Positions 2,716 to 43,747 of a DNA stretch of 48,506 nucleotides are shown piece after piece. The stretch spans positions 1-48,506 of the forward strand of contig JAHYJO010000012.1 in assembly GCA_019429125.1 (NCBI GenBank), written 5' to 3'. A program made the translations under genes and the position numbers. Within the stretch, counting starts at the first letter, position 1. Every line of letters starts with the position of its first letter. The notes below the pieces were generated by a model, which worked only from the letters and a program-made list of their open reading frames with translations, ran no database searches and was not told the DNA's origin. The stretch comes from Nanobdellati archaeon. GTDB taxonomy: Archaea > EX4484-52 > GLR71.

Positions 2716-2741
2716 ATTATACGGAGTTTATTCCGTATAAT
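2716..2741. other. Palindromic candidate tyrosine-recombinase binding/recombination site
   Basis: ATTATACGGA-GTTTAT-TCCGTATAAT: perfect 10-bp arms, 6-bp spacer, 10 bp from the integrase stop codon. Confidence 0.55.
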
Positions 2742-2751
2742 TCTGCTATAG

Positions 2752-3588
2752 TCATACTTTTTTATTGGTTCTATTTGTCTTTAGTTCTAAAAAATCAAGC
2801 GGACTGTTTACGGTTTTTATGAATGCATTTGATATATGTGTGTATATTTCAGTTGTCCTAATGTCATTGTGACCTAAAAGTCTTTGTATAATACGGATAT
2901 CTGTTCCGTTTTCAAGTAAGTGTGTTGCATAGCTGTGGCGTAATGTATGGGGGTGGACTTTCTTTTTTATATTTGTTTTTATTATGGTATTTTTCATAAT
3001 TTTTTGAATTGTGCTTGTTGTTAAATGTCCGCCTCTTGCAGAGTCAAAAACATAAGGGTTTTCGTCTGCGCGAGAGTTTATGTAGGATTTTAAACGAGAT
3101 GAAATGGATTTGGGTATCATAACAACCCTGTCTTTTTTTCCTTTTGCTTGTCGTATCATAAGGATATTTTCATCGAATCTTAAATCTTGCTTTTTAAGCT
3201 TTGTCACTTCAGATACTCTTAATCCGCACCCGTATATTGTTTCAATCAAAAGACGGTGTTTTGTGTTATTAATGTTGTTTAAAATCGTAATTGTCTCTTC
3301 TTTTGTTAAGACTTCAGGTAATCTCTTCGGTCTTTTCATGAAATTGAGATGCAATTGGTGTTTAAGGACATTCAGATAGAAAAACTTGACTGCACTTATC
3401 CTAAGATTTACAGTCAGATGATCCTTCGTGTCTGATAATTTAACAAAATACTTTTGAATATCTTCAGTTGATGACTCGATATTGTTGTGTCTTAAAAATG
3501 TGGATACATGAAACAGATACGCTTTTATGGTCTTTTGGCTCATGCCTTTTGATTTGAGTTCAAGCTTAAGCTTTGATATATTATCCAT
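2752..3588 (-). CDS. Tyrosine recombinase/integrase (XerD/IntI-like, lacking the IntI-specific insertion)
   Basis: YGCGLRVSE (Arg), KGKKDR (Lys), HTLRHSYATH, LLGH, TTEIYTH (Tyr); N-terminal SAM-like domain; only ~20 aa between KDRVVMIP and YVF. Confidence 0.93.
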   Translation of the reverse strand: MDNISKLKLELKSKGMSQKTIKAYLFHVSTFLRHNNIESSTEDIQKYFVKLSDTKDHLTVNLRISAVKFFYLNVLKHQLHLNFMKRPKRLPEVLTKEETITILNNINNTKHRLLIETIYGCGLRVSEVTKLKKQDLRFDENILMIRQAKGKKDRVVMIPKSISSRLKSYINSRADENPYVFDSARGGHLTTSTIQKIMKNTIIKTNIKKKVHPHTLRHSYATHLLENGTDIRIIQRLLGHNDIRTTEIYTHISNAFIKTVNSPLDFLELKTNRTNKKV

Positions 3589-3736: not shown

Positions 3737-6409
3737 ATGATTGAATTCAATCTTACTCAAATTGAAAAGAAATGGCAGAAAGCCTGGAAAGATAATAATC
3801 TGTTCAAAGCAAAGAAAGATACAAATATGAAAAAGTTTTATGCGCTTGAGATGTTCCCATACCCCTCTGGCAAACTACATATGGGTCACGTACGCAATTT
3901 CTCAATTACTGACGCTGTCGCAAGATACAAGAGGATGACAGGATACAATGTCTTGTACCCTATAGGATACGATGCGCTAGGACTCCCTGCTGAAAATGCA
4001 GCAATTAAAAATGATTCAGACCCTAAGAGCTGGACTTTAAAATGCATAGAAATGATGAAAGCGCAACAAGAATCGATGGGGTTCAGCTATGACATGTCAA
4101 CCCTAACACCTACGTGTATGCCTGAGTATTATAGATGGAATCAATGGATATTCCTTAAACTTTTTGAGAAAGGGATAGCTTACAAGAAGGTTGCGCCTAT
4201 TAACTGGTGCCCGGACTGCAAGACGGTACTTGCTAATGAACAGGTTGAAGACGGGAAATGCTGGAGATGCAAGTCAGAGGTCATAAAAAAAGATCTGTCG
4301 CAATGGTTCTTTAAGATTACTGAATATGCAGATGAACTATTAAAGGATTTATCTAAATTAGAAGACTGGCCGGAAAAGGTCAAGACTATGCAAAAAAACT
4401 GGATAGGCAAAAGCGAGGGTACAGAGATTTACTTTAAAGTAAAAGATATGGATCTTGAAATTTCAACTTTTACAACTCGACCTGATACTATTTTTGGAAT
4501 TACTTATCTTGTGTTTGCGCCTGAACACCAAATAGTAAAACAGTTAATAAAGGGTACAAAGGATGAAAAGGAGATAAATAAGTTCATAAAAGAAGTTGCA
4601 AAAAAATCTACAATTGAAAGGACGGCTGAAGGGAAAGAAAAGAATGGAATTTTCACGGGTCAATATTTTATTAATCCAGTAAACGGTGACGAGTGTCCTA
4701 TATACATTGCGGATTACGCTATTATGGATTATGGTACTGGCGCTGTTATGGCTGTGCCTGCACATGATAAACGAGATTTTGCTTTTGCAAAGAAATACAA
4801 GTTGCCAGTTAAAGTTGTGATACAACCAAAAGACAATAAACTTGATGTTAAAACTCTAAAAGATGCATACACTGACTCGGGGGTATTAGTTAATTCTGCA
4901 GAATTTGACGGAACCAACAACGAAGTAGCAAAAGATAAAATTACAAAATGGCTTGAAAAAAATAAATTAGGTAAAAGTACTGTCAATTATAAACTTAGAG
5001 ACTGGTTAATCTCTAGACAGAGATATTGGGGTACACCGATACCTATCATATACTGTGATGACTGTGGTATTGTTCCTGCTGATGAAAATGATTTGCCTAT
5101 AGTTTTGCCAGATGGCGCCAAGTTTGACGGTAAAGGCAATCCACTCGAAAAAATAGAATCATTTATCAACTGCAAATGTCCAATCTGCGGAAAACCTGCA
5201 AAACGAGAGACCGACACTATGGACACGTTTGTTGATTCGTCATGGTATTTCTTAAGGTACACAGATAATAAAAATGATAAGTTGCCGTTTGGAGACAATC
5301 ATAAATATTGGATGCAGGTGGACCAGTATATAGGTGGTGTTGAACATGCTATCCTTCATCTTTTGTATGCAAGATTCTTCACTAAGGCATTAAGAGATAT
5401 TGGTCTTACTGACATTGATGAACCATTCAAGAGGTTGTTTACTCAAGGTATGGTCTTAAAGGATGGGGTTAAGATGTCAAAGTCAATAGGCAATGTGGTT
5501 GATCCGGGTATCATTATTAACAAGTATGGGGCTGATACTGCAAGATTATTCATACTGTTTGCTGCACTTCCTGAAAAAGAGTTGGAATGGAGTGATAAAG
5601 GTGTTGAAGCATCTTACAGATTCCTGAAGAAAGTCTACAAGTTAGTTGATGATAACAAAATAAAAGCTACAAAGATTGATGTTGATACTTTAGATGCTAA
5701 ATCTAAGTATGTATTGAGTCTTATACATAGTACTATCAATTCTGTGACTGAAAATATTGATAATTTTAGGTTTAGTTTTGCAATTGCTGATATTATGGCA
5801 TTGACTGTTGAAGTTCAGAAATTGGCGCTTAAGGCTGATAAGAATTATAAAATAGTTGTTGCGGAAGGTATTGATACTATCATAAAGCTTCTTGCACCGT
5901 TTACACCACATATTGCTGAAGAGATGTGGAGTATGGTTGGTGGTAAAGGATTTGTGTCTGAGTGGCCGGTAGGTAATGAGGATTATATTGACAAGAAAGC
6001 TATTCTTATGGAAACGTTTGTCAAAGATACGGCATCTGACGTTAGGCAGATTGTGCAGTTGATAGGTAAAACACCTGAGTCAATTAACATTTATGTTGCG
6101 CCTGAATGGAAACATAAGATTTATGAACTTGCTAAAGGGAAGCCTAAAAGCCTTATTGCAGAGGTTATGAAGGATACAGAGATGAAAGAGATTGGCGCTG
6201 AAGCTTCTAAGTATGCGCAAAGTCTGATGAAAAGACCTGTATTTTTGGATGTATTGTCTTCTGATGATGAATATCTGGCCCTGGCTTCAGGTCTTGACGT
6301 GTTTATTGATGAGTTTGACTGTGAGATAAATGTTATTAGGGCGGATGAATCTGAGTCTGATAAGTCTAAACGGGCGGAACCTGGTAAACCTGGGATTGAG
6401 GTTTTGTAG
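3737..6409 (+). CDS. leuS: Leucine--tRNA ligase (bacterial-type core, archaeal-type C-terminal domain)
   Basis: [20 protein letters not shown] editing domain, [21 protein letters not shown]; ends in [11 protein letters not shown]. Confidence 0.97.
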
Positions 6410-9092: not shown

Positions 9093-10196
9093 ATGGAAGA
9101 TATTATAAAAAATGCGGCTGTTAATCGGTCGAGTCCAAAAAATAAAAAAGCTCATTTGATTGATGACGAATTAAAAAAGATGCTTGATAAACGTCTTGCT
9201 GAGATTAAAGTTGTCGGTGCAGGTGGCGCAGGTAACAATACTCTTTCACGGCTTGCTGAGATTGGTATTGAAGGTGCAGATTTAATTGCAATAAATACTG
9301 ATGCTCAAGATTTACTTTATACGGATGCTGATGAAAAGATTCTGTTAGGTAAGGAATTAACAGAAGGTCTTGGTGCTGGTGCTGATCCATCAAAAGGTGA
9401 AGCTGCAGCTAAAGAGAACCGAGATGAAATAAAAGAGCATCTTGAAAATGCAGACATGATTTTTATAACTTGCGGTCTTGGTGGTGGCACTGGTACTGGT
9501 TCAGCACCTATTGTTGCTGAAATCTCAAAGAAGATTGGCGCATTGACTATTGCTATTGTCACTTTGCCTTTTGCTATGGAAGGTCAGCAGAGACAGGAAA
9601 ATGCAAAGCAGGGTCTTAAGAAACTTGAAGCTGCAGTTGATACTTTGATTGTTATACCTAATGATAAATTATTAGACATTGTTCCTGATGTATCTATTGA
9701 TATAGCTTTTAAAGTTGCTGACGAGATATTAGTAAATGCTGTAAAAGGCATAACTGAGCTTGTCACTAAACCGGGTCTTATAAATCTTGATTTCGCTGAT
9801 ATTAAAGCAGTCATGGGTGAAGGTGGTCTTGCTATGATTGGTATGGGTCAGAGCGATACTGAAAACCGAGCTGAAGAAGCTGCTATGAAAGCATTGTCTA
9901 ACCCTCTGTTAGATGTTGATATAGATGGCGCTGATGGTGCTTTGATTAATGTTGTCGGAGGAAGTGACCTTACGCTTAAGGAGAGTCAGGAAGTTGTAAA
10001 CTCTGTAACTTCAAGGCTGTCACCTGATGCGAAAATCATATGGGGTGCTCAATTGGACAAAGATCTTGGTGATTCTTTAAGAGTCATGCTTATTGTGACT
10101 GGTGTTAAGAGCCCACAAATTTTTGGTACTGAAATGGGTTTCCATAAAGAAGGCAAAAAACAGATTGAAAAAGATTTAGGTATTGAATTTATCTAA
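9093..10196 (+). CDS. ftsZ: Cell division protein FtsZ (FtsZ1-like)
   Basis: VVGAGGAGNN, GLGGGTGTG tubulin signature, INLDFAD T7 loop. Confidence 0.97.
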   Translation: MEDIIKNAAVNRSSPKNKKAHLIDDELKKMLDKRLAEIKVVGAGGAGNNTLSRLAEIGIEGADLIAINTDAQDLLYTDADEKILLGKELTEGLGAGADPSKGEAAAKENRDEIKEHLENADMIFITCGLGGGTGTGSAPIVAEISKKIGALTIAIVTLPFAMEGQQRQENAKQGLKKLEAAVDTLIVIPNDKLLDIVPDVSIDIAFKVADEILVNAVKGITELVTKPGLINLDFADIKAVMGEGGLAMIGMGQSDTENRAEEAAMKALSNPLLDVDIDGADGALINVVGGSDLTLKESQEVVNSVTSRLSPDAKIIWGAQLDKDLGDSLRVMLIVTGVKSPQIFGTEMGFHKEGKKQIEKDLGIEFI

Positions 10197-17217: not shown

Positions 17218-17861
17218 AAATGGAATAGTTTTGATTGTTTTTTTTCATATATTATATTTTGTGCGGTCTTCCATGAATGCCGGACATATTCTGGAAAGGT
17301 TTTATTCTTTTTAAAATATGATCTTAGGAATTCTTTTGTCTTTGGATCTGCTGGGTAACCTGAGCCTATTGGTTCATTTAGCTCTTTTTCAATCAGTTTT
17401 ATGTTTTTGTCTCTTGTCACTTTGGCTATTATTGATGCTGCTGATACGACTGGGTATCTTTCATCCGCTTTGTGTTCTGCAATCAGGTTTATTTTTCTGT
17501 TGACTTTTGCTTTTAGGCGTTCGGGAAAGTCTGAGTTTCTTTCGGGGAGGTCAAGGTATACTGTATCTGCATCAAGGCTGTTTATTATTTCCGCAAAGGC
17601 GTTCAATTCTATTTCGTTTAGTGATATATTTTTTCTTAAGTTGTCTATATCTTTTGCAGTTATTGTGATTGTTTTTATCTTTGTCGCAATCTTTTTTATT
17701 TCGGTTTGCAGTTCTTCCCGTCTTTTAGGAGATAAGAGCTTTGAATCTTTGATATCAAGCTCTTTTAAGATAATTTCATCCTTTGTCCTTATCTGTATGC
17801 CTGAGAGTGTCATTGGACCAATTACTGGACCTCTGCCTGCTTCATCTAGTCCTATTATCAT
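17214..17861 (-). CDS. rnhB: Ribonuclease HII
   Basis: GLDEAGRGPVIGP, KDSKLL, VSAASIIAKVTRD, GSGYPAD, C-terminal PIP box QSKLFHF. Confidence 0.97.
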   Translation of the reverse strand: MIIGLDEAGRGPVIGPMTLSGIQIRTKDEIILKELDIKDSKLLSPKRREELQTEIKKIATKIKTITITAKDIDNLRKNISLNEIELNAFAEIINSLDADTVYLDLPERNSDFPERLKAKVNRKINLIAEHKADERYPVVSAASIIAKVTRDKNIKLIEKELNEPIGSGYPADPKTKEFLRSYFKKNKTFPEYVRHSWKTAQNIIYEKKQSKLFHF

Positions 17862-17945
17862 ATATATCCTCGGGGTATGCGTTAAGCTTATAAAAATAAG
17901 TATTATATTGTATATATTCTTATTGTATTATATTATTTTTTTAGT

Positions 17946-18020
17946 AGCGGGATGGAATAGCTTGGAGTGTTCGTCGGGCTCATAACCCGAAGGTCAGAGG
18001 TTCAAATCCTCTTCCCGCTA
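17946..18020 (+). tRNA. tRNA-Met(CAT), initiator
   Basis: AGCGGGA/TCCCGCT acceptor stem with A1-U72, anticodon arm TCGGG-CTCATAA-CCCGA with three G-C pairs, T-arm AGAGG-TTCAAAT-CCTCT; no intron, CCA not encoded. Confidence 0.96.
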
Positions 18021-18031
18021 TATTTTTTAAT

Positions 18032-18535
18032 CTAGGGTATTATCCATTGGATAAAAGTTACTACTTTGAGTATACCTTTTGAAAGGAAAATGAGTATTTT
18101 TGTCTTTAAGCTTGCTTTTTTTGTTGTGCTGTATTCTATCTTGTCACTATTTATTGCATCAAGTATTACTTGTGCTGGGTCATTTGAAGATTCAATTGTA
18201 GTCAGGTCTTCAAGTACTGTTTCGTTCAGTTTTAGTGTTATTGTGGCATTTGGGTCTGAACCTTTTTTTATGTATTCAAGGCTTCCGTTATTGGTCGTGA
18301 TTGTGAATACTTGATTTGTTTCAGTAAGTGTTATTTCTAAAATTTCGTTACCTAAGGTGTTTTTTAAGGTTTCCATTGCGTTGTTATCTGGATTTTCTGT
18401 GTTTATATAATCTTTTATTTGATCTACTGTTTCATTGCTTATTTCGATATTTTCAAACTGGTTATAATCAATAGCGGAGACTATTGTAGAACTAAATATT
18501 AACCAAAATACCATTGCTGTTAGCGTTTTTCTCAT
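18032..18535 (-). CDS. Secreted/membrane-anchored hypothetical protein
   Basis: Signal peptide MRKTLTAMVFWLIFSSTIVSA, hydrophobic/basic C-terminal helix. Confidence 0.75.
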   Translation of the reverse strand: MRKTLTAMVFWLIFSSTIVSAIDYNQFENIEISNETVDQIKDYINTENPDNNAMETLKNTLGNEILEITLTETNQVFTITTNNGSLEYIKKGSDPNATITLKLNETVLEDLTTIESSNDPAQVILDAINSDKIEYSTTKKASLKTKILIFLSKGILKVVTFIQWIIP

Positions 18536-18577
18536 ATGTGTATATGTGGTTTGGTTGTTTATATATCTTTGGGGTTT

Positions 18578-18806
18578 ATGGTGCCTAATTGGTGATTTTT
18601 GGTCATTATTGTTGGGATGGTGCCTAATTGTGTCCTTTTTGTAGATTTGTGTTGATTTTAAGATGAATGGGTTTGTCTCTTTTTGGTTTTTTGGTTTTTT
18701 GGTTATGTGTAAGTATATAGTGCCTAACTGCTTGGTTTATTGTTAAATTAAAGTATGGTGACTAACTGTATTTTTTTGTATGTGTTATATGAATAGTGCC
18801 TAATTG
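18578..18806 (+). repeat. Array of five 14-bp boxes ATRGTGMCTAAYTG
   Basis: Copies start at 18578, 18617, 18717, 18755, 18793 (spacing 39, 100, 38, 38). Confidence 0.9.
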
Positions 18807-18865
18807 ATGTTTTTTTCATGTTTTTTTCCGTTAGCTTTATTATCAACCTTTGACCTATTAGTAGT

Positions 18866-19798
18866 ATGGTCTTTGTTTGGCTTGTGAATAAGATTGCAGG
18901 TATATTTAAAAAATATGGGTCTGATATCTCAAAATCTGATGTTGATGAAGATTTCGATATGGTTCTTCAGGTAATTCAGGAAGGTTTCGGAAAGATTAGA
19001 AGTAGGTTTGAAACTGTTGATAATGAAATTAATAATATTCGTGCGGCCGTTCTTTTAAAAGATGTTCATTCTTCAGAGCATGAATCTTTAAGGCAAGATA
19101 TATTATCAAATACTTCTCAATATAATTATATATTAAATAATGTTCATAATTTATATAATCGGATTGATGCTGTTGAACAGAGTGTCGGGGCAGTTAATAA
19201 GTCTAGTGATTCTGAGGAACTTCATCAGATGTATAATAATCTTGATTCTCGTATTCAGTCATCTAATTTAAAAATACAAGAAGAAGTTATGGCTAAAATA
19301 ATTCCACATATTAATGCGATTGAAACTAAGATATCTGATGTTAATTCCAAAAATTATCAGCTTGTTGATGAAATTCGGGTTTTGAAAGAACAGATTAAGA
19401 TGTCTGTAAGATCTTCTGATAACAATGTTATCACAAAGGATAACAATATTGTCTCACCGATTAACAATGTTACCACAACAAATGAGTCATTGGATGTTGT
19501 ATCCCACAGTGTTACAACAGCATTTAAGCCAAGTCGTACGATTATAACATCACGTAATCTTAACAAAGTTTTACCTTCAGCACTTATTCCTACTTTCAAT
19601 GAGTTATTGAATGCTGATAAATTTTTATCTTATTTTGAGCTTGCTAAATTATTGGATAAACGTGAGGCAACTGCTAGAGCTTATGTGAATGATCTTCGTA
19701 ATCGTGGTGTTGCGGTTGAGGAGGAGACACGTGAAAATGGACGAAAACTTGTTAGGCTTGCAAAAGATATACGTCAGCAATATATTATTCCTGAATGA
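18866..19798 (+). CDS. Coiled-coil protein with C-terminal winged helix-turn-helix domain
   Basis: Heptad-rich N-terminal ~180 aa, N/T/V-rich linker, then LLNADKFLSYFELAKLLDKREATARAYVNDLRNRGVAVEEETRENGRKLVRL (HTH plus wing). Confidence 0.85.
   Translation: MVFVWLVNKIAGIFKKYGSDISKSDVDEDFDMVLQVIQEGFGKIRSRFETVDNEINNIRAAVLLKDVHSSEHESLRQDILSNTSQYNYILNNVHNLYNRIDAVEQSVGAVNKSSDSEELHQMYNNLDSRIQSSNLKIQEEVMAKIIPHINAIETKISDVNSKNYQLVDEIRVLKEQIKMSVRSSDNNVITKDNNIVSPINNVTTTNESLDVVSHSVTTAFKPSRTIITSRNLNKVLPSALIPTFNELLNADKFLSYFELAKLLDKREATARAYVNDLRNRGVAVEEETRENGRKLVRLAKDIRQQYIIPE
19421..19519 (+). repeat. Iteron-like 15-bp boxes at 21-bp period inside the wHTH gene
   Basis: AACAATGTTATCACA (19421), AACAATATTGTCTCA (19442), AACAATGTTACCACA (19463), CACAGTGTTACAACA (19505). 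Confidence 0.75.
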
Positions 19799-19870
19799 TT
19801 TATTGGATTCTTTTTTGAGTGTTATAATTTTGTTGTAACAGAGTCATAACCGTGTTCCCACAAGTGTTTG

Positions 19871-20270
19871 GTATAACAGAACAGCAACATAACAATGTTG
19901 TAACAGTGTTATGCGTCAAATGCGTCATTTGTTGTTATCTTGTCTTGGATGTTGTCATATTTAGGGATGTTATTCTTTCTATTTTAATGATACTTTTAGG
20001 TTCTTAAAAAAATTTCCTTTGAAATTCTAATCTTTCTGTTATAATTTATTTTAATATAAACTATTTCTATTTTTAGGTCGATTTGTATCTGTTTGTTGTT
20101 GTAGTATAACAACATAACAATGTTGTAACAGAATTATGTGTCATTCGTTGTTATTTAGTTAGATGTTGTCCTTCTAAGAGTGGTATGATCTTTCTATTTT
20201 TATAATATTTTTTGGTTCCTAAAATTTTTTTCTTTGAAATTTTAATGATCCTGTTATAACTATTTTTATT
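19871..20270 (+). repeat. Diverged direct duplication of ~170-190 bp carrying TGTTRTAACA boxes
   Basis: Copy 1 ~19871-20056, copy 2 ~20104-20270; shared blocks CAACATAACAATGTTGTAACAG, GATGTTGTC, TCTTTCTATTTT, CTTTGAAATT, CTGTTATAA. Confidence 0.85.
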
Positions 20271-20687
20271 ATGGTGTATTTAATCTTTTTTTTTGTTTTT
20301 GTTTTTTTGACTATTATGTGTCTTGCGTTATTGTAGTATTTTTATATTTGATCTATTTTTGTGTTGTAACTATGTTATTTTTGTTATTATCTTTGATATT
20401 GTTATTTATCTGTTATTTTGTTATAACAGCTGTTTTTGGCGTATTTTTTTGGTTTTTCTTCCTTTGGTATATTGTTTGGTTTTTTCTTCTTAACACTTAA
20501 ATTTTATGTATTTTATGTATTTTTTGTGTCTTTGTATTGTGAATACCAAAAGGGTATTTTGTCTAAATATGTTGTTTTTTGTGTATTTTTATCTGATGTT
20601 ATCGTTTTATATATCTCGCTATATTGGTATGTCTTTATATTCTTCTGATTTTTTTATTTTAACTCTCACATTTTTTGTGAGTTTTTT

Positions 20688-20883
20688 TAGTAATGTAGCT
20701 TTATAGTAATGTAGCTTTATAGTATTATTTTATTATAATTTTATATTTTTATATTTGTATCGTTTTATAGTTGTGTGTCTTTATTTATGTATATTATCAG
20801 GGTTTTATTGTATTATATTTTTATAGTAGTCTATTATCATAGTAGTCTATTATCATAATAGTCTATTATTATAATATCCTATT
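20688..20883 (+). repeat. Two sets of 16-bp tandem repeats in an AT-rich tract
   Basis: TAGTAATGTAGCTTTA x2 (20688-20719); TAGTAGTCTATTATCA x2 plus two degenerate copies (20824-20883). Confidence 0.85.
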
Positions 20884-21094
20884 TGTATATTTTCATTTTA
20901 TTATATTTTCATCTCTATATCACACTATATAATTATAGTTTTATTTTTTTTCATTTTGTGTATGATTGTGCTCAAGAACCCTTACTTAATTGCTATCAAT
21001 TATATGTTTTTTGTCAAAACAGAATAAATTACGTTTGATTTTTTTTATTTTTTTGCAGAAATATTTTTTGTGAATTTTTTTTAACTCTCACATT

Positions 21095-21949
21095 TTAGTT
21101 GATTTTTTTTGTTGAAAGTGGATGTGCTTTGGTGTATATATTTTCTTTTCTTTTGTTTGTTACATGCATATAAATCTGCGTGGTTGCCAGGTTTGAGTGG
21201 CCTAAAAGCTCTTTTATTATCATTATATCTGCATCGTTTTGCAGAAGATGAGTAGCAAAAGAATGTCTTAATGTATGGGGTGTTACTGTTTTTGTTATTC
21301 CACATTGTTCTGAATAATATTTTACTATTCTTTGTATCGATCTTTGAGTCAATCTTTCTTTTTTTAGGTTGATAAAAATAGCTGGGTTGTTATCGTTTCT
21401 AGTTCTTAGATAATTTTTTATTTTTTTTAATGTGCCCTCATCAGCATAGACTATTCTGTCTTTTGAGCCTTTTCCGTCTATTATCTTTATGTTATTTCCT
21501 TCAATATTTTCTCTGTTCATGTCTACAAGTTCTGAAACCCGCATCCCGCAGGCGTAAAGTAGTTGTATGATTGCTCTGTCTCGGAGGTTTTCAATTGATG
21601 TCAGGAGCTTTTGTGTCTCTTCAATTGTCAGAAATCCTGGTAGTTTTTGTGATACTTTTGGTAATTTTATGTTGTCTGCTACTATATTTTTGGTAATCCT
21701 GAAGAAGCTTTTTATTGCGTTGAGGTGTCTGTGTATGGTTGTGTTGGTTGCGTTTTTACCCTGCTGTAAGTAGACTAAATAGTTTTTTATGTCTGTTTCT
21801 GTTATGTCTTGCGGTGATTTTTTTGTGAATTTTAGGAAGTTATCTATTGTGTATACATAGCTTTCTAGGGTGTTGTGTGAATAACCTCTTAGTTTTATTT
21901 CTGTTTTGAAATTTTCAAAATAATTAGGTTTTTGTGTGTCTTCTACCAT
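21095..21949 (-). CDS. xerA: Tyrosine recombinase XerA
   Basis: EIKLRGYSHNTLESY, YACGMRVSEL, GKGSKDR, VTPHTLRHSFATHLL, LLGHSNLATTQIY; adjacent dif-type site. Confidence 0.88.
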   Translation of the reverse strand: MVEDTQKPNYFENFKTEIKLRGYSHNTLESYVYTIDNFLKFTKKSPQDITETDIKNYLVYLQQGKNATNTTIHRHLNAIKSFFRITKNIVADNIKLPKVSQKLPGFLTIEETQKLLTSIENLRDRAIIQLLYACGMRVSELVDMNRENIEGNNIKIIDGKGSKDRIVYADEGTLKKIKNYLRTRNDNNPAIFINLKKERLTQRSIQRIVKYYSEQCGITKTVTPHTLRHSFATHLLQNDADIMIIKELLGHSNLATTQIYMHVTNKRKENIYTKAHPLSTKKIN

Positions 21950-22017
21950 AGTTTATCCGCCTAGATTTTATTATTTTTTCACGTTTGGTCGCTTGTTACT
22001 GTTTTTATCAGAGTGTC

Positions 22018-22045
22018 ATGTCGCATAATATACATTATGCGACAC
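22018..22045. other. dif-type Xer recombination site
   Basis: ATGTCGCATAA-TATACA-TTATGCGACAC: 11-6-11 layout, perfect 10-bp inverted arms, inner ATAA/TTAT; minus-strand spacer TGTATA equals the E. coli dif spacer. Confidence 0.88.
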
Positions 22046-22222
22046 AGAATATATTATAGTTTTTATTCCTTATATGCTTTTTGGTGCTACAGTTGCTGTT
22101 TTTTATGTTGTAACATTGTTTTTATAGGGTTTATTTCTGTTTTTTATAGTTTTTGTGGCTTTTTGAGGGGGGGGTAAGATATGTTTTTTTTGTCTTGATT
22201 TATATCTTGTGGTTTTTATTAA

Positions 22223-22429
22223 TATTTGGGCACCATGTTCTATTTTTTCGGATTTATTTAGAAATAGGCACTAGTTTATTTTTGGATGTTTTGTAATGTC
22301 TCTTGTTTAAGATTTAGGCACCAATATTTATTTGTCATATTTTTATTCATGTGGTCTGGTTAATGTTAAGTATTTTTATCTTATTTTATATTTTTTGAAA
22401 TGTTGGTATTTTTTGTAGTTAGGCACCAG
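22223..22429 (-). repeat. Four inverted copies of the 14-bp box seen at 18578-18806
   Basis: TATTTGGGCACCAT (22223), GAAATAGGCACTAG (22261), GATTTAGGCACCAA (22311), TAGTTAGGCACCAG (22416) versus reverse-complement consensus CARTTAGGCACYAT. Confidence 0.8.
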
Positions 22430-22479
22430 TAAACTTCGGTGTATTTTTAAGATTTAATAATTATCAATTTTTTGATATT

Positions 22480-22866
22480 TTAAAAGTTAAGCTGGTCTCC
22501 GATATCGAATTTTTCATTTTTGGCTAGCTCGTTTTCGATTTCTAGAACGTATTTACATCGTTTTTTTGGTATGTATAATTTCCATGTCTTGGGCTTTAGA
22601 ATTTTTAAGGGTACTGCATTTTTTTTTATGTCGACAATAGTTTTTTTGTTGTCTATAAATATGATATCTAGATTAAATCTCATAAATGGCATCCATATTG
22701 AGGATTTTCCCTCTTTTATGAATTCCATCAGCATTCTCCCTGATTTTTTGAACATCAGACCGCGTGTGTTTCTCGCTATTGATATCGAAAACTCTATATT
22801 GTCTATTTCTGTCTTTTTTGTCTCGTTTCTTATTGTGATTTTTTTATTTTTTATGATTTTTATCAC
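22480..22866 (-). CDS. DUF192 family protein
   Basis: RGLMF...MLMEF...IWMPFMRFNLDIIFID...YVLEI pattern. Confidence 0.88.
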   Translation of the reverse strand: MIKIIKNKKITIRNETKKTEIDNIEFSISIARNTRGLMFKKSGRMLMEFIKEGKSSIWMPFMRFNLDIIFIDNKKTIVDIKKNAVPLKILKPKTWKLYIPKKRCKYVLEIENELAKNEKFDIGDQLNF

Positions 22867-23636
22867 TCTATATCCTTTTTATTTTCTTTTTTTATATATC
22901 TTGCAAATACTAAGAAACCAGTATGACCGAGCATTGCTGTTTTTGGTCTTATACATTTTTCATTTTCCCAATCTCGTATAAGACATTCTCTGAAAACTAT
23001 GTTTATGAAACCTTTTGAGTCTAACATATTTATGGCTGCTGTGCTTTGTTCTATGCAGGGTGAATATACGGCAATCCTGCCTCCTACTTTTAGATTTTTA
23101 GTTATTTTTTTTATTGTATCTTGTGGTAGTGGCATGTCAAGTATTATAACATCAAAATCTGTACCTTGTTCCTCTTTTATGTCTCCTGCTTTAACTTCTA
23201 CATTATTCAATCCCATGCGTCTTATGTTTTCTGTGCCTATTTTATAGTGTTTTTCGTTTTTTTCCCAGCTTACAACTGATTTTGCAATGTTTCCAAGATG
23301 TGATGTAAGGAATGCTGAACCACATCCTGCCTCAAGTACTTTTGTTGTTTTTCCTATTCCGCAAAAAGTAGTTATCATGCCTACATCTTTAGGATGTATT
23401 ATTTGTGGTCCTCTTTTCAGGCTTTTGGATAAAAGATCCCTAAAATCGGGTACAAGAACTAAAAATTCATTTCCTGTTGTAGTTTTGTATCTTTTTCCGT
23501 ATGATTTTCCGATTATGTCTTTTAGTTGGAATGCACCGTATTGTGAGTGGAATGTGCGTAACTCTATATCTATGAGATATGAGTTACCTGAATCATGCAT
23601 TATTATGGCCTTGTCGCCTTCTTTTATATTTGTCAT
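22863..23636 (-). CDS. trmI: tRNA (adenine57/58-N1)-methyltransferase
   Basis: KRGPQIIHPKD, VLEAGCGSA, LDMPLP, YSPCIEQ, RPKTAMLGHTGFLVFAR. Confidence 0.94.
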   Translation of the reverse strand: MTNIKEGDKAIIMHDSGNSYLIDIELRTFHSQYGAFQLKDIIGKSYGKRYKTTTGNEFLVLVPDFRDLLSKSLKRGPQIIHPKDVGMITTFCGIGKTTKVLEAGCGSAFLTSHLGNIAKSVVSWEKNEKHYKIGTENIRRMGLNNVEVKAGDIKEEQGTDFDVIILDMPLPQDTIKKITKNLKVGGRIAVYSPCIEQSTAAINMLDSKGFINIVFRECLIRDWENEKCIRPKTAMLGHTGFLVFARYIKKENKKDIE

Positions 23637-28317: not shown

Positions 28318-30573
28318 TTAAATGTATCTGTCGTTATAATCCATATCAATAATTTCTTTTATTTTTTTTGCTTTTTCTTTCCCTAGACCTTCAATTTCCT
28401 CTAATGTCTTCTCTTTGCAGTTTACGAATTTTTTTATTGTCCCGAATCGTTCAAGGATGCGTTGGCTTAGTTTTATGTTGATGTCTGGGAATCCTGAAAT
28501 TATGTATTCTTGTTTCTCTTTTGTTGTTTTTGTGCGCTTTGTGCCTCTCAATGATATGTCTCTTTTTTCTCCCTGTTCGCGTCTTGCAAGAGCTATTATC
28601 ATATCTTTTGTGTCGTCAAGGTCTCGTGTTGATACGATTGGGATACCGAAGTCACAGGCAATGGATGCGAGTGCACCCCTTATTGCATTGGGGTGTATGT
28701 TTCTTATACCATACAGGTTTTTTCCTTCAAGGATGAGTATCGGGCGTTCAAAGGTGTCTTTTAGTTCTGTCATCTGCTTAAAAAGGCGCTGATCAATTAT
28801 TGATTGCAAGAAATCACCAACTTCCTTTCTTTCTATGCCTACTCTATCAGAAATGATTATGTCTCCTACTGCTAGTTGTTTAGATATGGTTTCAATGTCA
28901 TTTGTTTCGGTCAGTTTCTTTATCAATTTGGGTTCGCGGTGGTCAACATATATCTTTATATTATTGTTTTTTTCTTTTTTAAAGTTTTTAAGTGATTTTT
29001 GTTCTTGTGAAGTCTGTTCATTAGGGTTTTTGTGTCTCTTTAGTTCAACGCCTGTGTTGTTGAAGCTTTTTTTAAGGCTATCAATGACTATTTTCATCTT
29101 TTTTTCTTTGTGGCGCGTACTCCAGTAGTAAGATTCATCAATTGTTCCTTTAGTCATAAGTATATGCACTATACCTTCTTTTTCTCTTCCTGTCCGCCCA
29201 CGTCTCTGTATGGTTCTTATTTCTGATGGTATTGGCTCATAAAAAATCACGGTGTCAACTTTTGGTATGTCAAGACCTTCTTCTGCTACTGATGTAGCTA
29301 CAAGGACGTTGTATGTGCCATTCCTGAACTTGTCAAGTGTCTCTTTTTGTTTTTTTTGGGTGTTGCCTTTTCGTTGCCCTATGAATTTTACTGCTTTTAA
29401 TGTCTTTTCATCTGCGAGTTCTTTGATTATCAAGTCGACTGTGCTTATATAATGAGCAAATAGTATGGTTTTCTTTCCATTTCTTACACTCTCTTTTGCA
29501 AGTTCTTTTGCTTTTATGAGCTTTGGATGTTTCGTGTCTTTTGAGGCTAGATATGTGGTAAGGATTGATGCCTGTTTGACATCGTTATCTGAGAGAAGTG
29601 TCATTGATGCTTTTGTATTGTCTTTTTTAAGTTTTTCAATATATGTTTCAAGTTGGGGGATGCCTTGTGTTTGGATAAGCTCTATTGCATGATTAAGCTT
29701 TATGCAGGCGGCAACGTCTGAGATTGCTTTGAAGAATATAGGGTCTTGTTTTTGTATGGCTAAATCTCTCATTTTTCCCGACAGTTCAAGAAGTTCTCTT
29801 TTTGATGGCTGTGTATCTTTTAAGATGTTCATTGATATGAGAAATTTTATCTTTTTGGTCTTTGCTGTCTCAAGGAGTGTGCTTATCTTTTTTAATTCCT
29901 CTGGAAAAGGTATTTGTACCCAATTTATTTTTGTTTCTTTGATATAGGGTTTTACGTCCCAGTCGTTCTCGTCTCGTATCTCTACATTTTCACAGTATAA
30001 GTTGCCACAGATGGCGCCTATCTTTTCTTTTGTCCCGCCAGGGCTTGCTGTTAGGCCTAAGATTAATTGTTCTTTTTGAGGGGTGTCGATGTATCTTTTT
30101 GCAATAAATGTGTATGCGTAGTCGCCGGAGGTCCTGTGTGCCTCATCAAAGACTATTATTGAATATTGAGAGAGGTCTATCCTATTATTTATTATGTCAT
30201 TTTCAATCACTTGAGGTGTTGCAAAAATGATTCTTGAATCCTTGTAGATGTCTTCTCTTTTTTTTGGCGAGACTTTGCCCGTCAGTATCTCAAATGCACC
30301 GATGGCATCTGTCTTGGTATCCATGACATCTGTAAAACTTTTCAGGTGCTGTTCAACAAGAGGTTTTGTGGGAGCCATTATGAGGGCTTTTTTTTCTTTG
30401 TATTTTCCCAGTCTGTGCGCTACAATACCTATTGCTATTATTGTCTTTCCAATTCCTGTCGGCAATATGACAAGTGAGTTCTTTTTTGAGCAGCTGGCTA
30501 TTATGTTCTCTTGATATTTACGTCTCTGTATGGTATCTTTTTTTAGGAGTGGGTGATTGAGGTATTCGGTCAT
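28318..30573 (-). CDS. hef: Hef helicase-nuclease (FANCM-type DEAH helicase + ERCC4 nuclease + HhH)
   Basis: LPTGIGKT, FDEAHR, GLTASPG, IQRRGRTGR, VDHRE, GDIIIS...IERK, HhH IEGLGKEKA. Confidence 0.95.
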   Translation of the reverse strand: MTEYLNHPLLKKDTIQRRKYQENIIASCSKKNSLVILPTGIGKTIIAIGIVAHRLGKYKEKKALIMAPTKPLVEQHLKSFTDVMDTKTDAIGAFEILTGKVSPKKREDIYKDSRIIFATPQVIENDIINNRIDLSQYSIIVFDEAHRTSGDYAYTFIAKRYIDTPQKEQLILGLTASPGGTKEKIGAICGNLYCENVEIRDENDWDVKPYIKETKINWVQIPFPEELKKISTLLETAKTKKIKFLISMNILKDTQPSKRELLELSGKMRDLAIQKQDPIFFKAISDVAACIKLNHAIELIQTQGIPQLETYIEKLKKDNTKASMTLLSDNDVKQASILTTYLASKDTKHPKLIKAKELAKESVRNGKKTILFAHYISTVDLIIKELADEKTLKAVKFIGQRKGNTQKKQKETLDKFRNGTYNVLVATSVAEEGLDIPKVDTVIFYEPIPSEIRTIQRRGRTGREKEGIVHILMTKGTIDESYYWSTRHKEKKMKIVIDSLKKSFNNTGVELKRHKNPNEQTSQEQKSLKNFKKEKNNNIKIYVDHREPKLIKKLTETNDIETISKQLAVGDIIISDRVGIERKEVGDFLQSIIDQRLFKQMTELKDTFERPILILEGKNLYGIRNIHPNAIRGALASIACDFGIPIVSTRDLDDTKDMIIALARREQGEKRDISLRGTKRTKTTKEKQEYIISGFPDINIKLSQRILERFGTIKKFVNCKEKTLEEIEGLGKEKAKKIKEIIDMDYNDRYI

Positions 30574-31554: not shown

Positions 31555-32823
31555 TCAATCTTTTATTGCAATCGGGCTTCCACCTGCATGCCAACTCATA
31601 CGGGGGCGCATCCGTATAGGATATAACCTTTCGGAGTTGTCATCAAGAATTATGGCTGCACCTTTGATTCGTGGTAGGTTGTCGAAATAGTCTGAGATGC
31701 CATATTTCAAATAGGATTGCATGATCTGGCTTAAGGAATCTATATCTTTTGAACTTGTCAGTCTGTGCGATATCACAAGGTCACACTGGCTTATTGCTTC
31801 CTGATGCAATTTGTTTGGCATCTGTGTGGCAAGAAGAAGTGAGACACCTGGTTCTCTTCCAATTTTTACCCATTGCAAAAGAGGTAGTGATGCTGCAGTC
31901 ATGCCTTCTCGGGGCAGGAACTGATGTGCCTCGTCAATCATCATCCATGTAATCGGCATGTGTCCACCTTTGCTTGTTCCTTCCATATCTTCGGATTCTT
32001 CCATACGTCTTGCTTTTATCCTTGCATCAAGGATGTGTCTTCCAATAAGTCCCACAACAAGACTTTTGACGCTCCATCCGCCTGATGCCTGGCTGAAATG
32101 GCTTACGTCAAGTATGGTTGTCTCTCCTGCTTTTATTATGTCATGTATTGATGACCCTTCCTTATCAAATATTCCCCATTCCTCAGCCACTTTATATCTG
32201 TTTATCAGGCCTTCTTTTGCGTTAGGGCTAGCGTCATCATTTTTTATCTCTTTTATTATGTCTTCAATTGAATAGTCGGTCTTGTCTTTCATCTGTCTCA
32301 TGGTCTTTTGGAGGAGTATTCCTATTTCGCTGTCAAGTTCAAGGTTGAAACTCAACGCCCAATCATCAGTGTTTAAGCTTGAGGGTTTCATTGAGAATGT
32401 GGAATCAAAAGGTATAGAATCATCATTGTATATTTTTGTGAGACCTTTAGGCACCATCACGTTGACATCAAAACCTTTTGGTTTCAGGTTCCATTCCGCG
32501 AGGAGCTCTGTATCTTTTTCGTTAGGCATCTTCATACTCCAATAGATACCCATTGTGTCTATTACAATTACTCCTATGTTTTTTTTGATGTCTTGTGGCA
32601 AAAGCATCATCTCTTCTACAATGCTACCCATTGAATATGATTTTCCTTGGCCTCTTTTACCGAAAAGTCCAATTATGTGCGGTCGGGCGAGGTCTATATT
32701 GACTGGTGTTGTGACGTGTGCTTCATTTTTTAAGCCTACAATGTGTTTGGCTATATAGCCTGTGCCGCGCATGCCATATTTTTTTTCATCTGAAAGGTCA
32801 CGCCCTATAAGTATCTCATGCAT
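31555..32823 (-). CDS. HerA/FtsK-superfamily (DUF87) ATPase
   Basis: Walker A GKRGQGKS, IDTMGIY, Walker B MIDEAHQF, GREPGVSLLLATQMP. Confidence 0.9.
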   Translation of the reverse strand: MHEILIGRDLSDEKKYGMRGTGYIAKHIVGLKNEAHVTTPVNIDLARPHIIGLFGKRGQGKSYSMGSIVEEMMLLPQDIKKNIGVIVIDTMGIYWSMKMPNEKDTELLAEWNLKPKGFDVNVMVPKGLTKIYNDDSIPFDSTFSMKPSSLNTDDWALSFNLELDSEIGILLQKTMRQMKDKTDYSIEDIIKEIKNDDASPNAKEGLINRYKVAEEWGIFDKEGSSIHDIIKAGETTILDVSHFSQASGGWSVKSLVVGLIGRHILDARIKARRMEESEDMEGTSKGGHMPITWMMIDEAHQFLPREGMTAASLPLLQWVKIGREPGVSLLLATQMPNKLHQEAISQCDLVISHRLTSSKDIDSLSQIMQSYLKYGISDYFDNLPRIKGAAIILDDNSERLYPIRMRPRMSWHAGGSPIAIKD

Positions 32824-41796: not shown

Positions 41797-42081
41797 CTAA
41801 ATTGCTTTTGGTCCTTTGAAATATCCCTCTTCTATATCTTTTGCGTTTTTAAGTGCGTCTTTCTGTTTTAGGCTTGTTTCTATCTTATCTTTGCGCATGA
41901 TGTTTTTGACTTCTACAGGCTGGAAAGTGGGTTCTGTATTGGTTGTGTCTATTTTTTCAAGCTTTTTGAAACTATCAAGGATGTTATCAAGATCTTTTTC
42001 AAAATTCTTTTTTTCTTCAGCAGTCAGTTCAAGCCGTGCAATGTTAGCGACTTTTTCAATTCGTTCTGTCATCTTGTTCAC
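41797..42081 (-). CDS. gatC: Asp/Glu-tRNA amidotransferase subunit C
   Basis: IEKVANIARLELT...IDTTNTEPT...MRKD...GYFKGPK; upstream of gatA. Confidence 0.93.
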   Translation of the reverse strand: MNKMTERIEKVANIARLELTAEEKKNFEKDLDNILDSFKKLEKIDTTNTEPTFQPVEVKNIMRKDKIETSLKQKDALKNAKDIEEGYFKGPKAI

Positions 42082-42387
42082 TTCTGATTAATATTTTTTA
42101 CTTTAACTTTTATATTTTTGGTGTTTTTAGTCTTTGGGTTCCACAAGAAATGAAGGTTGTGTGGGTATTTTGTGGTTTTGTATTGTTATAGCACTATATT
42201 ATCAGTTTTGATTTTTTGTTTTTAATGTTTCAAAAAACGGCATCAATAGCTCTGTTATTTTTTGTATGTAGTATATGTGATGTTTAATATATATTCTATA
42301 GAATAGTAAACTATATATACTATTAATGTAAAATAAAAGTTAGTATGGTCGACAAATTTGGGCGTTTGTGACCGATTAAAAATGATT

Positions 42388-42411
42388 TATTTGAATTTGG
42401 GCATTCAAATA
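42388..42411. promoter_or_regulatory. Palindromic operator-like site upstream of the second ftsZ
   Basis: TATTTGAAT-TTGGGC-ATTCAAATA, perfect 9-bp arms. Confidence 0.45.
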
Positions 42412-43699: not shown

Positions 43700-43747
43700 T
43701 GATTTTTACTAGTTTTTTTATTTTTTATATATATAACTCCCTCCCAT

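Follow-up and report, generated by a model that had tools for sequence, protein, structure and literature searches.

XerA and a dif-type site in a conserved, box-bracketed locus of one DPANN family that looks like a chromosome landmark rather than a replication origin

In the bacterial chromosome-landmark systems MatP/matS, RacA/ram and Noc/NBS, the protein joins its DNA-binding domain to a coiled coil and carries a short anchoring element at one terminus, and the MatP region contains dif. At the plasmid Xer sites cer and psi, the accessory proteins PepA and ArgR/ArcA are unrelated housekeeping proteins. RTP/Ter in Bacillus and Tus/Ter in E. coli are replication fork traps. Among archaea, the dif site of Thermococcales is flanked by inverted repeats and not adjacent to xerA (Cortez et al. 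2010, PMC2958812). According to Yamaura et al. (2025, PMC11840125), T. kodakarensis has its dif within an intergenic region of 1.9 kb, where sequence and TrmBL2 stall SMC and form a domain boundary; the surrounding sequence, not dif or XerA, has the architectural function. The same paper places haloarchaeal dif upstream of a xerA operon.

The window analysed here is a 48.5-kb contig (48,506 nucleotides) of a Nanobdellati archaeon. Its segment 18578-22429 (~4 kb, below called the module) holds a gene for a 310-aa protein (P310), an AT-rich tract, a convergent xerA and a dif-type palindrome, all lying between mirrored arrays of a short box, Box A (Table 1). The segment is best read as a chromosomal locus kept vertically in one DPANN family.

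Table 1. Features of the module, in window coordinates
Feature	Position	Strand	Description
Left Box A array	18580..18803	+	5 co-oriented copies, starting at 18580, 18619, 18719, 18757, 18795
Candidate P310 promoter	18822..18844	+	conserved block, invariant in alignment, ending in TATA-like CTTTATTATC
P310 gene	18866..19798	+	ORF for 310-aa coiled-coil and winged-helix protein
Box B-like DNA within P310 coding sequence	19418..19518	+	21-bp repeat in three copies, coding for NNV(I/T)T; GTTACAAC at 19511
AT-rich, ORF-poor tract	19799..21094		1,296 bp, GC 0.227
Box C, copy 1	20657..20688	+	TTAACTCTCACATTT, then partial complement and T run, a predicted hairpin
Box C, copy 2	21079..21093	+	abuts xerA stop codon; invariant in 5/5 aligned species, including another genus
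xerA	21095..21949	-	tyrosine recombinase, convergent with P310
dif-type core	22019..22044		TGTCGCATAA-TATACA-TTATGCGACA; 10-bp perfect inverted arms, 6-bp spacer
Candidate xerA promoter	22070..22104	-	35-nt perfectly conserved block with TATA-like element
Box B, inverted copy	22105..22122	-	beside dif
G8 run	22167..22174	+	inside 23-nt insertion; G005, G001, G002 without insertion
Right Box A array	22226..22427	-	4 copies, starting at 22226, 22264, 22314, 22419

The product of xerA matches PF00589 (Phage_integrase, the catalytic domain, 8.8e-41) and PF13495 (N-terminal SAM-like domain, 2.7e-18), scores 277.5 bits against the NCBIfam XerA equivalog NF040815 (cut-off 220) and aligns with the structure of P. 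abyssi XerA (4a8e_A) at 1.9e-55. Residues R137, K160, H225, R228, H251 and Y260, which we take to be the catalytic ones, are invariant in all five sequences. The palindrome upstream of the gene is unique in the genome even when up to 6 substitutions are tolerated; across five species its arms are conserved and its spacer varies (TATACA, TATAGA, TGGGGC). The best reading is that the module's recombinase is a genuine XerA with its own single-copy dif-type site, and the convergent xerA and dif of the original prediction both hold. The conserved block beyond the palindrome is a probable xerA promoter, which would place dif just downstream of the transcription start, and such a placement may allow xerA to regulate itself.

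Like archaeal Xer/dif systems, the module has a single XerA-type recombinase and one inverted repeat, unique in the genome, with a 6-bp spacer; its 10-bp arms compare with about 11 bp at archaeal dif sites. Inverted repeats flank dif as they do in Thermococcales (PMC2958812). Unlike the Thermococcales site, dif here lies 70-95 bp upstream of the ATG of xerA itself. It further differs from known archaeal sites in being embedded in a module with a dedicated DNA-binding protein, in not lying at a GC-skew switch, and in the presence of a second XerA-like gene (2716-3588) with its own unique palindrome 19 kb away. Either pair may be the one that resolves chromosome dimers.

From N- to C-terminus, P310 consists of a conserved amphipathic stretch (MVFxxxxxIAGIF), a coiled coil of ~150 aa, an Asn-rich linker of NNVTT repeats and a winged helix. 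No Pfam family matches it at E<=0.01, nor does any PHROGs family; four of its relatives (P0017, P0021, P0077, P0104) score above the HTH_24 cut-off. Both P310 and xerA are under purifying selection (dN/dS 0.16-0.22 and 0.10, respectively). The AlphaFold2 model has helices at 26-183, disorder at 183-222 and a winged helix at 241-307 (pLDDT 81-90), built of H241-249, H256-263, H267-279, E284-288 and E294-298; the C-terminal domain is accordingly modelled with the three-helix bundle and beta-hairpin wing of a winged helix-turn-helix fold. Its top Foldseek matches are MarR-type winged-helix regulators (best E 2.5e-3), and MarR, MepR and SlyA reach TM 0.41-0.45 when normalised by target length. Structure prediction and Foldseek, the check suggested with the original prediction, agree with the coiled-coil/wHTH gene assigned there. 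The conserved block in front of the gene is a probable promoter, its TATA-like CTTTATTATC lying 22-31 bp upstream of the ATG.

In architecture P310 is similar to MatP, RacA and Noc, and it shares with them tens of specific sites, most densely clustered in one part of the chromosome. Its domain order differs, however, the sites are concentrated at its own gene, and no kinship in sequence or fold was seen beyond a generic winged helix. Membership of the TrmB family (TrmBL2-like) was rejected, as P310 has no TrmB match and one distant relative reaches 17.6 bits against a cut-off of 25.6; three true TrmB genes sit elsewhere in the genome.

A search of the whole genome (1,158,795 bases) with the degenerate Box A core [AG]GTG[CA]C[TC]A[AT] gave 128 matches, and the module was the sole place with at least 3 of them in 500 bp. 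For at least 5 copies in 225 bp the Poisson chance, corrected for all windows, is ~4e-7. Five forward and four inverted boxes had been predicted, each of 14 bp; number and orientation stand, but the conserved unit is shorter, 11-12 bp (ATRGTGCCTAA, core RGTGCCTAA). The left spacings are 39, 100, 38 and 38, the inner 38/38 being kept in six of six species, and the copies form invariant islands in a six-species alignment with a mean column identity of 72%. The right spacings are 38, 50 and 105 here and 38/50/104-105 in all four species of the genus with an assembled right side; two right copies are degenerate here (GGTGCCCAA, AGTGCCTAT) and exact in relatives. RGTGCCTAA occurs 38-47 times in three congeners (control word, 8-13) and 2-11 times in five genomes of other families (control word, 1-23). 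Among the genomes counted, its over-representation is limited to the family that carries P310.

The AT-rich non-coding tract of ~1.3 kb is confirmed; it ranks fifth-longest among 86 gaps of at least 500 bp free of ORFs of at least 80 aa. It contains a ~215-225 bp unit twice (19865-20066, 20090-20281), 16-bp tandem repeats (20684-20724 and 20805-20889) and six GTTRYAAC sites (19832, 19897, 20122, 20253, 20363, 20420). The second box family that had been noticed in the tract is best defined by this motif (Box B), which has 76 copies in the genome, the eight at 19511-22107 being the sole cluster. Among the fetched loci of relatives, the copies fall inside the module in 8 of 8 cases in G005, 11 of 11 in G001, 13 of 13 in G008 and 6 of 7 in G009, the last two representing further genera. 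The Box B-like codons AAC AAY GTT ACN ACA are found again in G005, G001 and G008. All three copies at a metagenome locus with a distant P310 homologue (L109) lie 76-141 bp past its stop codon, and in remote homologues of another family, too, a repeat-rich non-coding tract follows the gene. In three genera GTTRYAAC is concentrated within the P310 gene and downstream of it, and a distant homologue likewise has a cluster behind its gene, so the motif is probably the cognate site of P310; the pairing is suggested by co-occurrence among related, non-independent genomes. For Box C, two of the three genome occurrences of TAACTCTCACATT are in the module. The predicted G8 run is present but unconserved, its insertion being missing from three other aligned species, and probably lies outside the system.

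One reading of these boxes makes P310 an autoregulated winged-helix transcription factor, with the arrays as operators of P310 and xerA and the dispersed boxes as further targets. Each array does precede its gene, and both have one and the same orientation with respect to the gene they precede; the left array ends 71 bp from the P310 start codon, and the distance of its innermost box from the ATG is kept at 69-71 bp in six of six species. The fold is of MarR type, and the ~41 Box A copies dispersed elsewhere in the genome have a common 5' AT flank. The right array, however, is 277-480 bp from the xerA ATG, past dif and the conserved TATA block, and archaeal regulators usually act much nearer to the promoter. 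Just 12 of the 41 dispersed boxes are intergenic, the 150-aa coiled coil, the amphipathic N-terminus and the kilobase repeat tract would be superfluous for a simple regulator, and the right array is kept in G008 although xerA is absent there. We consider this account rather unlikely.

Single contigs of two relatives (G005, G001) carry, in this order, an SCP2-like gene, five boxes, P310, the tract, XerA, dif, four inverted boxes, DUF192, GCD14 and UPPS. G002 has the same module order spread over two contigs, and in G003 and G007 the left half is present before the contig ends; assemblies are frequently broken within the module. P310 has the SCP2-like gene as its left and xerA as its right neighbour. 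Box number, order and spacing, genes and dif are kept in congeneric species, where housekeeping synteny is unchanged, and boxes, dif, both promoter blocks and Box C stand out as invariant islands in alignments of 68-80% mean column identity. These comparisons show the anatomy of the module, its uniqueness in the genome and its conservation.

Of nine other family genomes, seven were found to have P310; the remaining two, 68% and 87% complete, lack the flanking genes as well. As the original prediction had anticipated, its homologues occur together with xerA, dif, boxes and a long non-coding stretch wherever that side is assembled, with the exception of G008. This genome (93% complete) retains P310, a 1.9-kb tract and five inverted boxes but has no PF00589 match, that is, no tyrosine recombinase, and no dif, which implies that the role of P310 is not strictly Xer-dependent. 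The module was seen in one family only and its chromosomal site differs between genera, the RNase HII ... GCD14-DUF192 neighbourhood of G008 lying on another contig without it.

Such restriction to one family and variable position would suit a domesticated plasmid or virus remnant, with P310 as partition or replication protein, the tract as origin or centromere, XerA as integrase and the palindrome as attachment site. Recombinase, DNA-binding protein, iteron-like repeats and AT-rich tract do resemble a minimal replicon, the module has a tRNA-Met gene 560 bp to its left, and the breaks of assemblies in the module fit as well. Against it stand genus-wide synteny, divergence like that of neighbouring housekeeping genes (identity across the genus is 74% for XerA and 58-80% for flanking genes), purifying selection on both genes, and a recombinase that scores above the cut-off of the curated XerA model. 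The palindrome, present once, is intact and lies inside the module, whose borders show no half-sites; P310 has no PHROGs family, and relatives in IMG/VR were confirmed in 0 of 134 candidate stretches. The original prediction had named loss of the segment in close relatives as the mark of a decayed element, and within the genus no relative has the flanking genes joined without it. We therefore regard this origin as quite improbable. An iteron plasmid replicon was rejected: no Rep family was found in Pfam, PHROGs or NCBIfam, and the model has a single winged helix after the coiled coil.

The genome encodes one Orc1/Cdc6, on contig C23 (sole Cdc6_C match at C23:31672-31938). Upstream of it, inverted dyad elements with G-strings surround AT-rich DNA; they are conserved in five of five aligned species and present in two further genera (G008, G009). 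A canonical-looking, conserved Orc1-linked origin is thus located off the module's contig. Among the 30 window ORFs scanned (up to 38.2 kb), neither an Orc1/Cdc6 family nor a ParA/SegA-type ATPase family was detected, in line with the predicted absence of orc1/cdc6 and parA; a ParABS or SegAB segregation system was rejected, as there is no ParA/SegA-type ATPase gene beside P310 among these ORFs. An Orc1/Cdc6-type origin was rejected as well, since the module has no adjacent orc1/cdc6, its boxes are unlike the orc1-linked dyads, its only G run is species-specific and there is no skew switch; no canonical ORB is present, as had been stated. Gene-strand-corrected GC skew is 0.15-0.23 to the left and 0.08-0.29 to the right of the locus, with no sign change and no terminus-type switch at dif within the 48.5-kb contig of this fragmented assembly. 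In G008 the sign changes near orc1 (108 kb), not at P310 (201 kb).

Opposed arrays around dif and repeated directional boxes beside an AT-rich tract and a winged-helix protein recall RTP/Ter and Tus/Ter on the one hand and the iteron replicons of RepA, RepE and pi on the other. P310, however, lacks the double winged helix of Rep proteins and matches neither Rep nor Tus nor RTP (for Foldseek, among the matches listed), and both roles are disfavoured by the skew and by the Orc1-linked origin. In a fork trap the two opposed groups of boxes would serve as polar terminators, with P310 as the terminator protein: five boxes do oppose four inverted ones with dif between them, the spacings are mirrored from inside out (38-38-100-39 vs 38-50-105), the gene for a DNA-binding protein lies inside, and the flanking genes converge on the locus. 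Corrected skew nevertheless has the same sign on both sides, 93 kb separate the locus from orc1 in the ~1.1-Mb genome of G008, no likeness to Tus or RTP appears among the Foldseek matches listed, and the ~41 dispersed boxes show no polarity relative to skew (13 vs 11), which makes a trap very improbable. Archaea can have several replication origins, and an AT-rich tract with direct and inverted repeats beside a winged-helix protein might suggest a second one, but the non-Orc1 initiator originally proposed is hardly credible given the conserved origin with G-string dyads on C23, the absence of a skew switch at the locus, genes that converge on it instead of diverging, the G008 skew change at orc1, no match of P310 to Rep or Orc families (Pfam, PHROGs, NCBIfam) and a G8 'G-string' that is not conserved. 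As the other proposal has it, P310 may be a centromere- or terminus-binding protein acting with Xer-dif: its linkage to xerA and dif stands, no terminus-type skew switch is seen here, and the Xer-less G008 speaks against a strict dependence on Xer.

The explanation we prefer, tentatively and with slightly less than even confidence, is that the P310 module serves as an architectural DNA-binding system, acting at specific sites to assemble a nucleoprotein landmark around dif. On the assignment of boxes to proteins and on the function of the complex, we infer the following. XerA would act on the single-copy dif between the probable xerA promoter and start codon. P310 would be a lineage-specific DNA-binding protein whose amphipathic N-terminus leads into a long, dimerising coiled coil, followed by a flexible Asn-rich linker and the winged helix; it most likely reads the GTTRYAAC palindromes after its gene, within it and beside dif. 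The mirrored ATRGTGCCTAA arrays at the edges would be bound by P310 or by another factor restricted to the same family, and the complex of P310, boxes and dif may form a boundary, an anchor or a synapsis scaffold, not a replication origin. G008, without Xer and dif, counts against any Xer-specific role. GC skew without a terminus sign at the module, in contrast to Thermococcales dif, the shift of site between genera and a P310 below every Pfam cut-off all count against the landmark reading.

As in T. kodakarensis (PMC11840125), dif is located in an intergenic region of kilobase scale with convergent genes on its two sides; the trans factor there, TrmBL2, is likewise a winged-helix protein, and an SMC hinge protein is encoded in the genome studied here. 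P310 differs from TrmBL2 in being outside the TrmB family, encoded at the locus and lineage-specific, and discrete box arrays would take the place of a general nucleoid protein that responds to the shape of DNA. With cer and psi the module shares a core Xer site with some hundreds of bp of putative accessory sites; unlike there, the core site is flanked by arrays left and right, at distances of up to 3.2 kb, and P310 persists without Xer in G008. Accessory sites around dif could give selectivity of resolution without FtsK. In this family, XerA and its target site are held within a conserved 4-kb stretch that looks like a chromosome landmark rather than a replication origin.

The elements of the replication and segregation module described in the original prediction were found where it had placed them, on contig C25 of a genome of 1.16 Mb (32 contigs, 93% complete). 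The gene for P310, a protein with a coiled coil and a winged helix, is followed by an AT-rich tract of 1,296 bp (GC 0.227), which takes rank five among the longest ORF-free stretches of the genome. A degenerate pattern of Box A (ATRGTGCCTAA) has 128 matches genome-wide, and nowhere but in the module do at least three fall within 500 bp; chance would produce the left array with a probability of about 4e-7 after correction. The predicted G8 run is also present but is not conserved, being part of a 23-nt insertion that three sister species do not have, and was therefore rejected as the G-string of an ORB. With an RNAalifold covariation term of -0.62 kcal/mol on the tract alignment, there is no case for structured RNA in the tract, and an Rfam search at E<=1 over 17800-22900 gave nothing above family threshold except a tRNA. 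Genes for FtsZ, a Hef-like nuclease and a HerA-like ATPase lie near the module, so that several chromosome-maintenance genes share its contig.

Features of the module, its surroundings and related loci (positions on C25 unless another contig or locus is named)
Feature	Position	Strand	Remarks
Second XerA-like recombinase gene	2752-3588 (unit 2716-3588)	-	226.8 bits on XerA model, just above cut-off
Palindrome of second Xer, ATTATACGGA-GTTTAT-TCCGTATAAT	directly past the gene's stop		10-6-10, genome-unique
FtsZ	9093-10196		9 kb left of module
tRNA-Met (CAT)	17945-18021		560 bp left of first box, SCP2-like gene in between
Box A 9-bp core, left array	18580, 18619, 18719, 18757, 18795	+	five copies
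P310 ORF	18866-19798	+	310 aa, between the two Box A arrays
Tyrosine recombinase gene (xerA)	21095-21949	-	convergent with P310
dif-type palindrome	22019-22044		perfect 10-6-10, single occurrence in genome
Box A 9-bp core, right array	22226, 22264, 22314, 22419	-	four copies
Hef-like helicase-ERCC4 nuclease; HerA-like ATPase	28318-30573; 31555-32823		6-10 kb right of module
Gap upstream of orc1	C23:32815-33139 (L089:2692-3016)		325 bp
Sharp shift of gene-strand-corrected GC skew	C13:~42000-45000		about -0.10 to +0.20, between housekeeping genes
ATAACA-S-TGTTAT promoters	C2:20424, C10:8746, C22:29382, C24:22503		at or just after TATA-like elements
Repeated element ending in CACTCACTTTTTGAAC-AGTGCCTAAAA	C13:54533, C13:23800, C15:29202 (also C18:1932)		intergenic, ~40-50 nt
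Box A-like copies in a genome of another family	L082 (G014:C33) 4830-4960		three copies, two forming a palindrome

P310 is present in seven of the nine other genomes of the family, and source records give its relatives as a DPANN archaeon. The two negative members (68% and 87% complete) are uninformative, because the flanking genes are absent from them as well. Elsewhere in the phylum, where the class-level and phylum-level searches covered the same 42 genomes, only weak and remote matches were obtained, all in one genus of another family. A profile search of genome contigs gave no loci beyond the three already known. None of 98 candidate stretches on metagenome contigs was confirmed with the profile of the close P310 family, nor was any of 134 on viral contigs confirmed as a P310 relative; a narrower P310 alignment yielded one metagenomic locus, L109.

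The entire arrangement is found on a single contig in two congeners and over two contigs in a third, in the order ribosomal genes, RNase HII, SCP2-like gene, five boxes, P310, tract, XerA, dif, four inverted boxes, DUF192, GCD14 and UPPS; its left half, up to the contig end, is seen in two closer relatives. Homologues of P310 in the congeners thus stay linked to xerA, dif, the tract and the boxes, and the segment is not missing from close relatives, as the original prediction had envisaged for a decayed integrated element; on both counts the proposal of a module stands. A search of the module borders for a copy of the 3' end of tRNA-Met found none. The inner left Box A spacings (37-39 bp) are kept in 6/6 species and the right array spacing (38/50/104-105) in 4/4, and P310 starts 69-71 bp downstream of the last left Box A. 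Islands of invariant sequence in alignments of the intergenic regions correspond to the boxes, dif, two blocks that resemble promoters and a third motif, Box C (TTAACTCTCACATTT), which abuts the xerA stop. The arms of dif are conserved and its 6-bp spacer varies (TATACA, TATAGA, TGGGGC), as would be expected for the core site of a recombinase. An invertible segment is unsupported: the orientation of the module is identical in all six species of the genus, and nothing speaks in favour of switching.

Which parts of the module belong together is indicated by G008, the genome of a relative (93% complete, 20 contigs). It retains P310, five Box A copies in inverted orientation and an ORF-free tract of 1.9 kb in which the same motifs occur; neither a dif nor any match to the integrase family was found in it. 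The neighbourhood from RNase HII to GCD14-DUF192 lies on a different G008 contig, from which the module is absent. Since the unit is kept there without Xer and dif and away from this neighbourhood, the core consists of P310, tract and boxes, its position varies between genera, and Xer/dif is an associate.

The recombinase of the module has P. abyssi XerA as its best match (1.9e-55), scores 277.5 bits on the curated XerA equivalog of NCBIfam, above its cut-off of 220, and keeps the signature residues in 5/5 aligned orthologues. P310 has no family in Pfam or PHROGs and none that is meaningful in NCBIfam. An AlphaFold2 model built from 13 sequences is helical over residues 26-183, has a disordered linker at 183-222 and ends in a confidently modelled winged helix (pLDDT 81-90); Foldseek returned only generic MarR-type winged helices (best E 2.5e-3), and both results bear out the predicted wHTH domain. 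In the family alignment the N-terminus is amphipathic and conserved, the coiled coil variable and the winged helix almost invariant, and each member carries one to six NNVTT-like repeats. Among 1.84 billion representatives, a profile search retrieved 13 proteins at E up to 1e-26, matching over the C-terminal winged helix, and, at the fringe, proteins some 200-250 aa long that share the P310 architecture; many long proteins matched through the coiled coil alone and were discarded as spurious. Both genes are under purifying selection, with dN/dS of 0.16-0.22 for P310 and 0.10 for XerA.

The consensus that best describes the second box family is GTTRYAAC (Box B). This word has 76 copies in the genome, and the eight within 19511-22107 form its sole cluster. 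In the fetched loci of relatives the copies inside the module amount to 13/13, 8/8, 11/11 and 6/7, and in three species three copies spaced by 27 bp stand immediately 3' of the stop codon. The same pairing of gene and word recurs at L109, an unrelated metagenome contig encoding a distant family member, where 3/3 copies lie 76-141 bp past the stop; in the other family, a 600-bp tract of related palindromes follows the genes of the remote homologues. The same DNA word also encodes the NNVTT repeats of P310 itself, and its synonymous positions are conserved. The winged helix of the P310 family is predicted to read GTTRYAAC, the pairing across lineages being the best, if indirect, evidence.

Besides its nine clustered copies, Box A (RGTGCCTAA) has about 41 dispersed ones, 12 of them intergenic, against 3-10 for permuted control words. 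The dispersed copies have a common 5' AT flank, and the excess is restricted to genomes of the P310 family. The idea that Box A is a polar word like KOPS was rejected, its orientation showing no skew bias (13 vs 11). One Box A copy is carried by a small dispersed repeat family, the intergenic element ending in CACTCACTTTTTGAAC-AGTGCCTAAAA. The Box A-like copies in another family's genome lie between the end of a gene that, by eye, resembles the small subunit of DNA polymerase D and an ORF at the contig end that, likewise by eye, resembles a transposase.

With recombinases from other families of the phylum, the second XerA-like recombinase of the window shares 62-71% identity. Among 15 Xer loci of other families, ten are nearer to it (42-71% identity) and five nearer to the module Xer (39-43%); the dif of the module was found within 1.5 kb of none of them. 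The window offers two candidate Xer-palindrome pairs for dimer resolution. In G040, arms ATTATACGGA/TCCGTATAAT flank the orthologue of the second Xer (L042). Contigs of several relatives stop just beyond this gene. Between it and a helicase-like gene, the intergenic sequence at 2434-2715 is GC-richer, contains long complementary segments and may be a structured RNA.

The single Orc1/Cdc6 gene of the genome is on another contig, C23. In the 325-bp gap upstream of it, inverted dyads with G-rich tails, which we take to be ORB elements, surround AT-rich DNA, with a central invariant palindrome TATATAACA-N-TGTTATAT. The dyads are conserved across five species of the genus and can still be recognised in two further genera (G008 and G009); this gap is the probable replication origin. 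The component of strand composition that is independent of gene strand is strong, up to +/-0.19 per contig, and on C25 it is positive on either side of the module (0.15-0.23 left, 0.08-0.29 right). In G008, orc1 and P310 are 93 kb apart on one 287-kb contig, and the sign change of the corrected skew lies around orc1 rather than P310. Genes converge on the module locus, as at the dif of T. kodakarensis, and on the window contig skew places no terminus mark there. The skew shift on C13 may reflect a switch of the origin type, a rearrangement or a join made in assembly.

The 13-mer ATAACAWTGTTAT is confined to the orc1-linked origin and the coding sequence of P310; if the central base is left free, the word also appears at four promoters, apparently those of a cysteine/Fe-S regulon. 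The totals for the 13-mer ATAACA-S-TGTTAT are 39 against 2 for a control word in the ten family genomes and 21 against 12 in the other 32. A link between Box B and the origin through this word was set aside, because the promoters carry it too and because, in the other family, where P310 has remote homologues, the origins lack the palindromes of the homologues' tracts. Judging from translations, the genes downstream of the ATAACA-S-TGTTAT promoters encode cysteine desulfurase-like and cysteine synthase-like proteins and a small HTH protein whose tail is rich in Cys, which suggests a small sulfur/Fe-S regulon.

Among the papers listed, judged by title or abstract, our literature search found no description of such a module or of the P310 family. 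Cortez et al. (PMC2958812) give archaeal dif sites 11-bp arms and a 6-bp spacer, and place the Thermococcales site apart from xerA, between inverted repeats to which a partner might bind. Haloarchaeal dif is located upstream of a xerA operon by Yamaura et al. (PMC11840125), and that of T. kodakarensis inside a 1.9-kb intergenic region with convergent genes on either side; the boundary formed there depends on SMC and is directed, by way of the winged-helix protein TrmBL2, by the intergenic region rather than by dif or XerA. The present locus agrees with these findings, and SMC is encoded in its genome too; what sets it apart is that its protein is dedicated, encoded at the locus and from an unannotated family, and that its arrays are discrete and mirrored.

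With slightly less than even confidence, we regard the module as a conserved nucleoprotein landmark that is centred on dif and built by a new family of DNA-binding proteins. The chief competing explanations are a simple regulator, a mobile element that has been domesticated, a trap for replication forks and a second origin. The last, which corresponds to the initiator role of the original prediction, is unsupported, given the Orc1-linked candidate origin on C23 and the unchanged sign of the skew at the locus. Beyond the landmark reading, a bolder and rather unlikely proposal is that P310 founds a new class of DPANN chromosome-landmark proteins, with anchoring helix, coiled coil and winged helix, which would mark one locus through GTTRYAAC-type palindromes at their own gene. 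In this family such a landmark would have taken over XerA-dif and acquired directional arrays that mirror each other, giving an insulated or anchored recombination domain that would direct dimer resolution in place of the missing FtsK and may also be a barrier to forks or SMC.

How archaeal XerA is restricted to the resolution of chromosome dimers without an FtsK-like motor, and why archaeal dif sites occupy long, conserved, chromosome-organising non-coding regions, are unsolved problems. For both, the locus offers a compact candidate defined by its sequence, with a single recombinase, a single core site, a small protein family and two or three short motifs. These parts are amenable to work in vitro or in another host, although the organism itself has not been cultured. 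P310 would add an unannotated family to the short list of archaeal chromosome-organising factors.
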